Shown here piece by piece: positions 25,333-27,810 of a DNA stretch of 64,000 nt; position 1 is the first letter of the stretch, and each line of letters begins with the position of its first letter. The translations under genes were made by a program, and so were the position numbers. The notes beneath the pieces were generated by a model, which was not told the origin of the DNA, did no database searches, and saw nothing but the letters and a program-made list of their open reading frames with translations. Origin of the DNA: Escherichia coli (GTDB taxonomy: Bacteria; Pseudomonadota; Gammaproteobacteria; Enterobacterales; Enterobacteriaceae); NCBI RefSeq assembly GCF_044324875.1, contig NZ_CP172185.1. One strand, written 5' to 3'.

Positions 25333-25859
25333 CTACTGCCAGCTAATCTGCGCCCTGCCGTTTTTCTTACTCTTATACAGTCGCTCATCCGCCAGCATTT
25401 TCAAGCGTTCAACGGTAGTACATTCATTTGAATGCGCTACACCGATACTGGTGCTTAAATTAATGCTTCCCACCTGGAAATGAACAATTTCTTTTAGAAT
25501 CGATAGCAACTCTTCCAGCGTTCCACCCGTATAAATCACCGCAAATTCGTCACCGCCGAAGCGGTAGACTTTACCTTTATCTACGGGGATCTGTGATTTA
25601 AGGATTTTCACCACTTTCATCAACACTTCATCGCCCAGCAAATGACCGAAGGTGTCGTTGATGTTTTTGAATTTATCGACGTCAAACAGGCACAAATAAC
25701 CGCCTTTTTCCGGCAGCGCTTTTAAATCTTCGTCAAAGGATTTTCTGCCCATTGCTTTGGTCAGGTCATCCAGGAACGCCGAGTTATACAGACTGTAGAG
25801 TTTTTTGACATCGGCAGCCGAAAAGAAAAGCCCGCCATCCAGTACGCGTTCAAAATGGT
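25333..25859 (-). pseudogene. dgcI: 3' fragment (~175 codons) of a diguanylate cyclase gene, GGDEF domain only; by position the yliF/dgcI remnant
   Basis: Frame is open from the IS1 edge (25859) through ...[25 protein letters not shown]...[11 protein letters not shown]... to stop at 25333; no sensor or TM domain and no start context. Confidence 0.75.
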
Positions 25860-25874
25860 GGTAATGACTCCAAC

Positions 25875-26378
25875 TTATTGATAGTGTTTTATGTTCAGAT
25901 AATGCCCGATGACTTTGTCATGCAGCTCCACCGATTTTGAGAACGACAGCGACTTCCGTCCCAGCCGTGCCAGGTGCTGCCTCAGATTCAGGTTATGCCG
26001 CTCAATTCGCTGCGTATATCGCTTGCTGATTACGTGCAGCTTTCCCTTCAGGCGGGATTCATACAGTGGCCAGCCATCCGTCATCCATATCACCACGTCA
26101 AAGGGTGACAGCAGGCTCATAAGACGCCCCAGCGTCGCCATAGTGCGTTCACCGAATACGTGCGCAACAACCGTCTTCCGGAGCCTGTCATACGCGTAAA
26201 ACAGCCAGCGCTGGCGCGATTTAGCCCCGACATAGCCCCACTGTTCGTCCATTTCCGCGCAGACGATGACGTCACTGCCCGGCTGTATGCGCGAGGTTAC
26301 CGACTGCGGCCTGAGTTTTTTAAGTGACGTAAAATCGTGTTGAGGCCAACGCCCATAATGCGGGCAGTTGCCCGGCAT
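25875..26378 (-). CDS. insB: IS1 InsB frame
   Basis: 167-aa ORF identical to the first copy. Confidence 0.93.
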
Positions 26379-26572
26379 CCAACGCCATTCATGGCCATAT
26401 CAATGATTTTCTGGTGCGTACCGGGTTGAGAAGCGGTGTAAGTGAACTGCAGTTGCCATGTTTTACGGCAGTGAGAGCAGAGATAGCGCTGATGTCCGGC
26501 GGTGCTTTTGCCGTTACGCACCACCCCGTCAGTAGCTGAACAGGAGGGACAGCTGATAGAAACAGAAGCCAC
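26297..26572 (-). CDS. insA: IS1 protein InsA
   Basis: 91-aa ORF identical to the first copy. Confidence 0.95.
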
Positions 26573-26627
26573 TGGAGCACCTCAAAAACACCATCATACA
26601 CTAAATCAGTAAGTTGGCAGCATCACC

Positions 26628-27810
26628 GCCAGATACTGATTATTGTTGGACTCAATAATCGCCATATTTTTAATAAAACCGCTTTCCTGATCGTAAGAGA
26701 TCAGTGAGAGCAATTTATTTGACCGTTCAATTTCGGCATCTTTCATTTCCGCGATCGAATTTTTGATGCTGATAATCTCTTTCGCATCGCCTTCGCGAAT
26801 TTTCAGAGCCTCGATCTGATCCGTTGAGTCGGGCAAAAACGCCAGCGTATTAACCAGCTCGGTCATTTCAGAAAATTGCCGACGGAACACACGAGTGGTC
26901 ATTAAATAAACCACCAGCAATACGATAATAATGAAAGCAAACGGCAGATAAAAAAGTTTATCTGATGCGTTCAATAAATTACCGCCAGGATAATAAAAAT
27001 AGATTTCGAATAATGCGTTGTTTGGCACCGCTGATGTTTTTTCGATATATTCAGTATCGACAGAATCAATAATATTATAATTACCTTCGCTATTATAAAT
27101 AATCAGTTTTTCACGCGCGAGTTGATTCTTGGCAATGATCTCATGGCCTTGTTTCAAAAATAGAACTTCATCATTAGCGCTGATTTGATCAAGATACTCG
27201 TTCAGATATCGCCAGTTTAAATCGACATGTATTTTATCCACCGCTAACAAATCGTGATCTTTGCCGTTGATGCGTAGCGTAAAAGAGATACATTTTTTAC
27301 CCGGACGATCAAAGCAATTGTAGGCCGGATTCCAGCTGTTGTTAGAGTCATCTGAAGCCACCGACCATGGTCGTTTCACTGGATTAAAATCGGCAAAAAT
27401 AACCCGCCCTGACTCGTCGACAAGCGGTCCATTTACTTCTTCCTGATGATAAACAACGATTTTATCATTCGCCCTCCGCGAAAAGAGATAATATTTATTA
27501 TCATCAAGTACCAGTCCCACCGAGTCTAAAAATGGCATCATTTCCATTTTAAGGATCACAGCGCGTTGAATCTCCTCTGTATTTTTTAATAAATACAGTG
27601 AGTCCTTTAATGTCAGGGCCGAACGTTCAATATCTTTAAAGAAATAGCCAACGTTTTTCTGAATAAGTTCAAAGCGGCTATCGGCACGTTTTACCGCGCG
27701 TTCCGATACCAGTTGATAGTTAATGATGAAAAAAAGGCCAATAAATGACAGTGCTGCCAATAAAAATAAAATTATCAGCCTTATCTTTATCTTTTCATAT
27801 AAACTCAGCA
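26628..27810 (-). pseudogene. pdeI: 5' fragment (~394 codons) of a membrane-anchored c-di-GMP signalling gene (TM, periplasmic domain, TM, linker); by position the yliE/pdeI remnant; truncated by IS1
   Basis: ORF from MLSLYEKIKIRLIILFLLAALSFIG has two TM segments around a ~270-aa periplasmic domain and ends 7 codons inside IS1 with no GGDEF or EAL domain. Gene identity rests on synteny with gsiD. Confidence 0.7.

Follow-up and report, generated by a model that had tools for sequence, protein, structure and literature searches.

An IS1 element stands between the remains of two neighboring c-di-GMP genes, pdeI (yliE) and dgcI (yliF), in the 64-kb stretch of E. coli DNA analyzed here (the window). 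The features of this locus, together with those of a second IS1 copy elsewhere in the window, are collected in Table 1. The element between pdeI and dgcI has the hallmarks of its family, namely a length of ~768 bp and 23-bp imperfect terminal inverted repeats. Its terminal repeat pair, GGTGATGCTGCCAACTTACTGAT and GGTAATGACTCCAACTTATTGAT, is matched exactly at a distance of 768 bp, and no such match was obtained in 100 shuffles. The insA and insB' frames are present with the A6C motif for programmed -1 frameshifting, as is characteristic of IS1, and these transposase genes share the orientation of pdeI' and 'dgcI. The copy in nfsA, which is a simple insertion and served as an internal control, is identical to this element at 768 of 768 positions and lies in inverted orientation to it.

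Table 1 Features of the pdeI-dgcI locus and of the second IS1 copy in the window
Feature	Position	Strand	Description and basis
First IS1, simple insertion in nfsA	8437..9204	+	Perfect 9-bp duplication GTTCGGCGG; internal control
dgcI (yliF) 3' remnant	25333..25859	-	527 nt; final 174 codons and stop; K-12 alignment
Longest start-codon-initiated ORF in dgcI remnant	25333..25752	-	139 aa; ORF list and translation
IS1, complete	25860..26627	-	768 bp; terminal repeats, ORFs and identity to the 8437..9204 copy
IRR of IS1	25860-25882		Exact match to GGTAATGACTCCAACTTATTGAT
insB frame	25875..26378	-	167-aa ORF
insA	26297..26572	-	91-aa InsA ORF
A6C frameshift motif	26315..26321		AAAAAAC; IS1 nt 307-313
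IRL of IS1	26605-26627	-	Exact match to GGTGATGCTGCCAACTTACTGAT
Truncated PdeI ORF	26606..27811	-	401 aa; 394 PdeI residues and 7-residue tail AVMLPTY
pdeI (yliE) 5' remnant	26628..27811	-	1,184 nt; codons 1-394 and 2 nt; K-12 alignment from start codon
Promoter-like site upstream of pdeI	27898..27925	-	TTGTAA-16-TAGAAT; consensus match only

The IS1 copy and the gene remnants beside it

The original prediction held that this IS1 lacks a target duplication, and this was confirmed: a 9-bp target-site duplication was looked for in the 9-mers next to the element, CAAAATGGT and GCCAGATAC, and none was found, with identity at 1 of 9 positions. The missing duplication points to a secondary rearrangement and is not evidence against the identity of the element as IS1. 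We considered whether the two IS1 copies, which are inverted to each other, had taken part in an inversion or exchange, and rejected this, since the 16.6-kb interval is colinear with K-12 and the nfsA copy keeps both halves of its duplication.

On one side of the element lies the 3' end of dgcI. Positions 25334..25859 align to K-12 dgcI (876662..876137; 97.9%), and the stop codon ends at 25333. The reading frame is open as far as the IS1 edge and counts 175 codons with the stop, in agreement with the ~175 codons of a GGDEF gene that had been predicted. A Pfam search of the remnant returned only GGDEF (E = 5e-26), and the GGDEF motif (RFGGDEF) is intact. DgcI is characterized by an N-terminal TM-GAPES2-TM region ahead of GGDEF, and its full-length relatives have GAPES2 and GGDEF domains; the remnant does not have this architecture, as it is without the N-terminal membrane/GAPES2 part, 267 codons having been deleted together with the native start. 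Its longest ORF with a start codon begins at a methionine at residue 37, counted from the beginning of the remnant, which is 9 residues within the Pfam GGDEF domain. No obvious Shine-Dalgarno sequence was seen on inspection upstream of this start, and many dgcI alleles that are disrupted in other ways are annotated with the identical 139-aa product.

On the other side lies the 5' part of pdeI, which covers a transmembrane segment, CHASE9, the periplasmic region, a further transmembrane segment and the beginning of the cytoplasmic linker, and is without the degenerate GGDEF domain and the EAL domain. This bears out the predicted ~394 codons of a sensor gene that has no catalytic domain, except that the first base of the start codon is 27811 and not 27810. 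The ORF continues into the IS1, with the first codon of the AVMLPTY tail straddling the pdeI/IS1 junction and the stop falling within IRL. A Pfam search of truncated PdeI found CHASE9 alone (E = 3.5e-62), while the full-length 782-aa PdeI relatives have CHASE9 and EAL. By its domain content, the 401-aa product, which has no C-terminal EAL domain, is a pdeI remnant and would not be a functional PdeI phosphodiesterase. The putative promoter site upstream of pdeI stands in a region where such sites are no more numerous than in shuffles.

We found that 1,974 bp are absent between the two flanks when the window is compared with K-12, L004 and the near-identical L025, and that the flanks are colinear and in the same orientation; the deletion had been estimated at about 2 kb, and alignment to the intact yliE-yliF locus of K-12 and relatives gives exactly this length. 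The lost DNA comprises pdeI codons 395-782, a 7-bp spacer and approximately the first 267 codons of dgcI. As anticipated, the 3' half of pdeI, with EAL, and the 5' half of dgcI, with GAPES2 and the membrane part, are gone (Pfam). The 1,974-bp segment is not present elsewhere within the 64-kb window. Three relatives (L023-L025) have an intact, IS-free pdeI-dgcI locus with no differences from the window over the retained parts of both genes, and in the 6.85 kb left of the locus the window is matched at all but 4 positions by L023 and L025 and at all but 11 by L024.

Predicted consequences for c-di-GMP enzymes

From the domains that are missing, we infer that neither member of this paired c-di-GMP module should work as an enzyme. 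What is left behind, as read from the DNA, is a predicted 401-aa membrane CHASE9 sensor stub without its EAL output and a predicted GGDEF stub that has neither a promoter nor the membrane/GAPES2 part. An in-frame CHASE9-GGDEF chimera arising by precise loss of the IS1 was also considered and rejected, as 2 + 2 nt are left at the joint and a direct fusion is out of frame.

In Shigella flexneri, some of the c-di-GMP still came from cyclase genes in which a nonsense mutation precedes the GGDEF domain (PMC11327459), so the GGDEF stub may not be wholly inactive. We consider it very doubtful that the stub is alive, which would call for read-through transcription and a start at the internal methionine, giving a 139-aa soluble GGDEF protein with all catalytic residues. 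The putative promoters of pdeI and of IS1 insA lie upstream of the stub and share its strand, and a scan found no terminator-like site between them and the stub; a consensus scan for an outward promoter at the IRR end found none. If alive, the stub would be a small c-di-GMP source without regulation where there had been a membrane cyclase gated by its sensor, as described for the S. flexneri genes (PMC11327459). The allele is a natural double knockout, as judged from domains, of the poorly understood PdeI/DgcI module; its practical value is modest, and intact near-identical relatives of the L023-L025 type could be natural controls for biofilm, motility and adherence.

Occurrence of the allele and of other IS insertions at the locus

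Both junctions of the allele are also present in independent public assemblies that belong to the lineage of the window. At the right junction, GCA_002467655.1 is 100% identical to the window across 7,311 bp, 127 bp of IS1 included, and the exact 401-aa protein is public as SRB20242.1 (49 contigs, 52 blocks). The left junction was read directly, with 169 bp of IS1, in contig UDIE01000019.1 of GCA_900482385.1 (L026); 12 further similar places were reported, the sequence itself having been read in L026 alone, and two contigs (L027 and L028) stop within 1 to 2 bases of this junction. A public contig of 17,070 bp is made up of 207 + 16,655 + 208 bp, which corresponds exactly to the stretch from the nfsA copy of IS1 to the copy between pdeI and dgcI. 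Neither junction was found in any of the 5,426 complete RefSeq E. coli genomes; the matches of 100% coverage in complete genomes consist of two pieces from IS1 copies elsewhere in the locus and contain neither junction. The pdeI-dgcI deletion is recent and specific to one E. coli lineage. A Shigella origin, considered on account of the IS1 copies, is unlikely, since the window has two IS elements in 64 kb and the matching proteins and contigs carry the label E. coli. The allele, carried by at least about 50 public assemblies and 0/5,426 complete RefSeq genomes, is a clean, PCR-typable lineage marker.

Other genomes have IS elements at this locus as well. Simple IS1 insertions have a perfect 9-bp duplication in 5 of 5 cases, and strain EC19 has an IS1 without duplication together with a 384-bp deletion inside pdeI. 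Natural double insertions occur in strain Ec-2977, with one IS1 in each of the two genes, and in strain GF31, with two in pdeI, and both pairs are inverted. An unrelated IS1 variant is found 4 bp from the pdeI junction (L039; GCA_900480345.1), and in L040 an element ~10 bp from this junction has an end that we take to be that of IS903. The locus has been struck repeatedly by IS elements, with three independent insertions within ~10 bp of the pdeI junction, and this fits a dispensable, AT-rich target. IS1 lies in or beside the locus in at least 56 of 5,426 genomes, where a rough uniform expectation, calculated from ~9 IS1 copies per genome, a 3.7-kb locus and a ~5-Mb genome, is ~36. IS1 prefers AT-rich targets, and given this preference and the shared ancestry of the genomes, we do not claim enrichment of IS1 at pdeI-dgcI.

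Origin of the deletion and comparison with known systems

The explanation as a whole, in which one intact IS1 marks a 1,974-bp deletion, both enzymes are predicted to be non-functional, and the event is recent and lineage specific, has in our judgment a probability of about 0.9. The original prediction had also named an IS1-promoted adjacent deletion as the mechanism. The colinear flanks, the absent duplication and the loss of 1,974 bp uphold this part of the prediction, while the specific route is unproven, as no precursor was found. We lean modestly toward a route in which IS1 inserted, probably in pdeI, and then promoted an adjacent deletion. By this route, IS1 would have entered an AT-rich site in pdeI with IRL facing the 5' part of the gene, giving a duplication of GCCAGATAC, and intramolecular transposition from the IRR end would then have struck a target in dgcI; the intervening DNA and the second copy of GCCAGATAC would have been deleted, with the IS1 staying in place. 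The GC content near the pdeI junction is 36% (flanking 100 bp), and on the dgcI side it is 49% (100 bp) and 57% (30 bp); this lower GC content, and the other IS elements 4 and ~10 bp away, make pdeI the more likely first site. A missing duplication usually results from adjacent deletion or from IS-IS recombination, and each of the 14 IS150 events that came with a deletion in the E. coli long-term evolution experiment was an adjacent deletion (PMC11708052).

A precursor with IS1 at one junction was found in none of the 5,426 complete E. coli genomes. By exact protein look-up, the product predicted for a simple IS1 insertion at the dgcI site, DgcI(1-270) followed by a glycine and a stop, is not on record. 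The PdeI remainder expected in the insertion-only state is likewise not on record when begun at its TTG start and is found in 45 blocks when begun at its GTG start, the choice of start by gene callers being uncertain in both cases. The GTG-start matches were rejected as precursors, as the contigs that were read come from lineages other than that of the window and have a nonsense mutation, another variant of IS1 or an IS903-like element. The intact DgcI allele, with 11,296 blocks, is too common to inform.

Adjacent deletion and recombination between two IS1 copies have the same end product, so that the route itself is something we infer. In the recombination scenario, which we regard as possible and distinctly less probable than adjacent deletion, two direct IS1 copies, one in pdeI with a GCCAGATAC duplication and one in dgcI with a CAAAATGGT duplication, recombined and excised the 1,974 bp with one IS1. 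The product would equal the observed structure, double insertions do occur in the 3.7-kb locus (Ec-2977 and GF31), and IS-IS recombination is a common cause of missing duplications (PMC11708052). However, this scenario requires two insertions of the same orientation within 2 kb, whereas both natural double insertions are inverted, and neither its predicted DgcI(1-270)-IS1 product in assemblies nor an IS1 at the dgcI junction in any complete genome is on record. It is improbable, in our estimate, that an incoming IS1 integrated and the 1,974 bp were lost in a single step, with no simple-insertion intermediate, an event of which we know no demonstration for IS1. The data sets searched contain no such intermediate, and events of this kind have been proposed, as has duplication-less movement for IS5 and IS481 (PMC11708052), but an unsampled intermediate is weak evidence, and every IS150 deletion event that could be traced through time had an earlier insertion (PMC11708052).

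Two further readings would do without a deletion. An assembly artefact, in which a true arrangement of IS1, the 1,974-bp segment and IS1 was collapsed to a single copy, is highly improbable. Short-read assemblies break at IS1, so a separate IS1-flanked contig of 2 kb could exist, but the window runs through two IS1 copies without a break, repeat collapse does not normally lose a unique 2-kb segment, and public assemblies have no record of the product that this segment would give between two IS1 copies (the DgcI N terminus fused to IRL). The locus could also be taken for just an IS1 between two same-strand ORF fragments, that is, for one gene interrupted by IS1 whose duplication has decayed. 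This case, raised with the original prediction as grounds for rejecting it, is ruled out, because the flanks map to two adjacent genes and, in K-12 as well as in near-identical relatives, are separated by 1,974 bp; in addition, the 9-mers agree at 1/9 positions, and the two sides carry different domains, CHASE9 in pdeI and GGDEF in dgcI.

Insertion followed by adjacent deletion, the reading that we prefer, is an event of a well-known kind and reveals no new mechanism. The classical example is the set of IS1-promoted deletions in the gal region, reportedly described by Reif and Saedler in 1975. These and the IS150 adjacent deletions of the evolution experiment share with the window an intact IS that is kept, a deletion that starts from the exact IS end, a lost target duplication, and flanks that are colinear in the ancestor. 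The IS150 precursors were observed at earlier time points, whereas the route in the window is deduced from the end product.

Among other natural IS1 alleles, those of WP3-W18-ESBL-08, GF31, Ec-2977, EC19 and GCA_900480345.1 involve the same element family at the same locus, but at different positions or in different lineages, and they are mostly simple insertions with 9-bp duplications that disrupt one gene. The EC19 allele is like that of the window in having an IS1 without duplication and with a deletion, but none of these alleles spans both genes, as the window allele does. The GGDEF/EAL gene set has been eroded in Shigella and some pathogenic E. coli (PMC11327459), a process that Povolotsky and Hengge are also said to have described in 2016. 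In these bacteria, as in the window, c-di-GMP genes have been lost through truncation, deletion and IS activity; in S. flexneri, however, dgcI is among the four cyclase genes still intact and gave the highest c-di-GMP when expressed (PMC11327459), whereas in the window it is destroyed. The IS density of the window, two IS1 copies in 64 kb, is low, unlike that of Shigella.

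Structure of the junctions between dgcI and pdeI

The second IS1 of the window is complete, has 23-bp terminal repeats that both match the IS1 consensus exactly (with no such matches in 100 shuffles), and carries an insA open reading frame (ORF) of 91 amino acids, an insB-frame ORF of 167 amino acids, and an A6C frameshift motif, all on the minus strand. It is identical at 768 of 768 bases to the first IS1, the copy in nfsA. A perfect 9-bp duplication, GTTCGGCGG, borders the first IS1, whereas the 9-mers beside the second, CAAAATGGT and GCCAGATAC, agree at only 1 of 9 positions. 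In an alignment to E. coli K-12, the left flank is the 3' end of dgcI (yliF) and the right flank runs from codon 394 of pdeI (yliE) back to its start codon and then into gsiD, gsiC, and gsiB, with both flanks in the same order and orientation as in K-12. The 1,974 bp at K-12 874163..876136 are missing from the window at this IS1. The right-hand BLAST match runs 4 bases into IS1 (CACA in K-12, CACC at the IS1 end), which is not meaningful microhomology.

Coordinates of IS1 copies, gene remnants, and other features of the window
Feature	Position	Strand	Details
Segment with no alignment to the K-12 region adjoining rlmC	1..631		
nfsA, interrupted	~9205..9860 and 8370..8436	minus	duplication site at K-12 891831-891839
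First IS1	8437..9204		
Span of the two IS1 copies	8437..26627		copies inverted, bracketing 16.6 kb of chromosome (nfsA' to 'dgcI)
yliI	~21186..22301	minus	1-base deletion at 21731
rimO-dgcI interval	24338..25333		ORFs 24558..24944 (+) and 24934..25263 (+)
dgcI 3' end	25334..25859	minus	K-12 876662..876137
Second IS1	25860..26627	minus	768 bp; IRR at low-coordinate end, IRL at high-coordinate end
A6C motif	26315-26321	minus	
pdeI 5' part	from 26628, start codon at 27811	minus	
ybiU-ybiT segment	42988..48224		5.2 kb, not in K-12
Island after glnH	58570..64000		
Tyrosine integrase gene	58736..59929		

The pdeI remnant is 1,184 nucleotides long, and its frame crosses the junction and IRL to a stop, giving a 401-amino-acid product with a periplasmic CHASE9 domain as its sole Pfam domain. 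The dgcI remnant (527 nucleotides) has a 175-residue translation containing only a GGDEF domain, with the RFGGDEF motif intact. Full-length relatives contain CHASE9 and EAL (782 amino acids) and GAPES2 and GGDEF (442 amino acids), so the whole catalytic half of PdeI and the whole sensor and membrane half of DgcI were removed. The deletion also took the dgcI start codon.

By exact look-up of the window's RimO protein, we retrieved contigs of very close relatives, including three (L023 to L025) that have this locus without any IS. Over 6,853 bp left of IS1, L023 and L025 each show 4 differences from the window and L024 shows 11, and none of the three differs in the retained part of dgcI or the comparable 499 bp of pdeI. 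Both genes are intact in L024 and L025, while pdeI of L023 has a 1-bp frameshift. Compared to L025, the missing segment is likewise exactly 1,974 bp. Since such near-identical relatives lack the IS, the event is recent and confined to one lineage. The same comparison refutes the alternative of one interrupted gene whose duplication has decayed, as two genes are present and 1,974 bp are missing.

The original prediction of an IS1-linked deletion of about 2 kb across two genes, with unlike 9-mers, no target duplication, a 3' GGDEF fragment, and a 5' sensor fragment without a catalytic domain, was therefore confirmed as an observation by alignment, Pfam, and the IS-free relatives; its interpretation, route apart, is supported within these 64 kb of the genome.

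Independent support and probable route of the deletion

The junction-specific 401-amino-acid protein is recorded at NCBI as SRB20242.1 and occurs on 49 contigs (52 blocks) of the public collection. Among these contigs, that of GCA_002467655.1 covers the right junction and shows 100% identity to the window over a stretch of 7,311 bp, of which 127 bp are IS1. The left junction was read directly in GCA_900482385.1 (UDIE01000019.1) as ...GCGTTCAAAATGGT|GGTAATGACTCC..., followed by 169 bp of IS1; 12 further places are candidate matches, and two other contigs (L027 and L028) stop 1 to 2 bases from it. In a sub-lineage that also has nfsA::IS1, a 17,070-bp contig corresponds exactly in length to the stretch running from the first IS1 of the window to the second (207 + 16,655 + 208 bp). 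Taken alone, short-read assemblies would also be compatible with a true structure in which a 2-kb segment forms its own contig with an IS1 copy at each end. However, public assemblies have no record of the product expected of that arrangement (DgcI residues 1-270 plus Gly, with a stop in IRL), and the missing DNA is absent from the rest of the 64-kb window, so we regard an assembly artifact as extremely improbable.

Both junctions are absent from all 5,426 complete RefSeq E. coli genomes. The adjacent 11 kb is at best 99.1% identical to one of these genomes, so the lineage is not represented among them. Insertions of IS1 at pdeI-dgcI are not rare, however: the element lies in or next to the locus in at least 56 of the 5,426, compared to a rough uniform expectation of ~36, and we make no case for the whole locus being a hot spot. 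In four genomes inspected, 5 of 5 simple insertions have a perfect 9-bp duplication (one in WP3-W18-ESBL-08, two in GF31, and one each in pdeI and dgcI of Ec-2977). In strain EC19 (L022 2353..3120), an IS1 without duplication accompanies a 384-bp deletion within pdeI, further along the gene.

What is observed is one intact IS1, no duplication, colinear flanks, the loss of 1,974 bp, and near-identical relatives without the IS; from these we infer the route. Adjacent deletion is the textbook route, in which a resident copy would transpose intramolecularly into a nearby target, the DNA from the IS end to the target being lost and IS1 remaining in place. We assign this route a probability of about 0.55. 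Adjacent deletion and recombination between IS copies are the usual causes of absent duplications, and in a long-term evolution experiment 14 of 14 deletion-associated IS150 events had an earlier insertion (PMC11708052). The first insertion may have been at the pdeI site rather than in dgcI, a weak preference based on the AT-rich sequence there (36% GC in the surrounding stretch) and on other elements independently inserted within 10 bp. These are an unrelated IS1 variant (94% identical) 4 bp from the junction in GCA_900480345.1 (L039 1..190) and, ~10 bp away in another assembly (L040 1..170), an element whose end we take to be IS903. By our reading of alignments, a further IS1 site common to several strains lies ~46 bp away. 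Neither the complete genomes nor a look-up of the predicted product in public assemblies revealed an insertion at the dgcI breakpoint.

Recombination between two direct IS1 copies, excising the segment, would give an identical end product, and double IS1 hits do happen at this locus, but both natural double hits are inverted; we consider this possible, though clearly the less likely route. A one-step IS1 insertion with deletion is more doubtful still. No precursor was recovered from the 5,426 complete genomes or by exact look-up of predicted products. The IS1-linked two-gene deletion of the original prediction is supported, and adjacent deletion, the route it names, is more likely than two-copy recombination.

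Other features of the window

In other lineages, the bases around pdeI codons 392-397 have been independently disrupted (L037 to L040), and in two of these contigs (L037 and L038, ~2991..3001) a frame break splits pdeI into products of 391 and 387 amino acids.

The first IS1 is a simple insertion that leaves NfsA with about its first 218-219 of 240 residues, followed by a short tail encoded by the IS. Inactivation of nfsA is a first step towards nitrofuran resistance. Only 8 public contigs carry the NfsA-IS1 fusion product, compared to 49 for the pdeI junction product, so the nfsA insertion is the younger event. Recombination between the two inverted copies would invert the 16.6-kb segment; such an inversion in the window is ruled out by the intact duplication at the first copy and colinearity with K-12.

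The rimO-dgcI interval contains genes for a RelE/ParE-family toxin and a helix-turn-helix antitoxin, a module found in many E. coli strains and absent from others, K-12 having just 42 bp in its place. In yliI, a 1-base deletion (GGGATTTCGCCC to GGGATTTGCCC) relative to 6 of 6 related contigs, including same-lineage ones that share the IS1 junction, shifts the frame of this aldose sugar dehydrogenase gene; either the gene is a pseudogene in this strain alone, or the indel is an error of sequencing or assembly. From its translations, the ybiU-ybiT segment putatively encodes a LacI-type regulator, an MFS transporter, and a 791-amino-acid glycoside hydrolase family 31-like protein. K-12 homology ends 51 bp past glnH, where glnP is expected, and the integrase gene heads the island there, which also has a TPR protein, an EcsC-family protein, and the remnant of an ISAs1-family transposase. 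This joint is the same in three complete E. coli genomes, the island is at other sites in others, and no tRNA gene was found in the 64-kb window.

Predicted consequences and standing of the allele

On domain content, both PdeI and DgcI should be non-functional, supporting the predicted loss of one diguanylate cyclase and one phosphodiesterase. The PdeI stub retains two hydrophobic segments, the CHASE9 region, and the start of the cytoplasmic linker, with no output domain. Read-through transcription of the dgcI stub is plausible because pdeI', insA/insB, and 'dgcI share the minus strand and consensus scans placed a promoter-like site upstream of pdeI and the insA promoter in IRL, with nothing resembling a terminator from insB to the stub. 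A stop lies in the dgcI frame 20 codons inside IS1, the earliest start codon of the stub is a Met located 9 residues into the GGDEF domain, and no ribosome-binding site was obvious before this Met on inspection. GGDEF enzymes need a part that pairs two GGDEF domains, and the stub is without it. Activity of the stub is conceivable, if highly unlikely, since c-di-GMP in Shigella flexneri still came in part from cyclase genes that have nonsense mutations before the GGDEF domain (PMC11327459). A CHASE9-GGDEF chimera arising after IS1 loss was rejected, and no sensor-cyclase chimera is in waiting, because a direct join of the remnants is out of frame. The phenotype is probably subtle. DgcI was below detection in K-12 (PMC5635695), deletion of yliF increased bladder-cell adherence of CFT073 (PMC3484386), and in S. 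flexneri dgcI expression gave the highest c-di-GMP of four intact cyclases and lower invasion (PMC11327459).

A search of papers naming at least two of pdeI, dgcI, and IS1 found no description of this allele. It can serve to mark the lineage, and it is a natural double knockout for which near-identical relatives with the intact locus exist. The event is neither surprising to a specialist nor one that opens an outstanding question: the allele is a new instance of a long-known type, the IS1-associated deletion that leaves two gene remnants.
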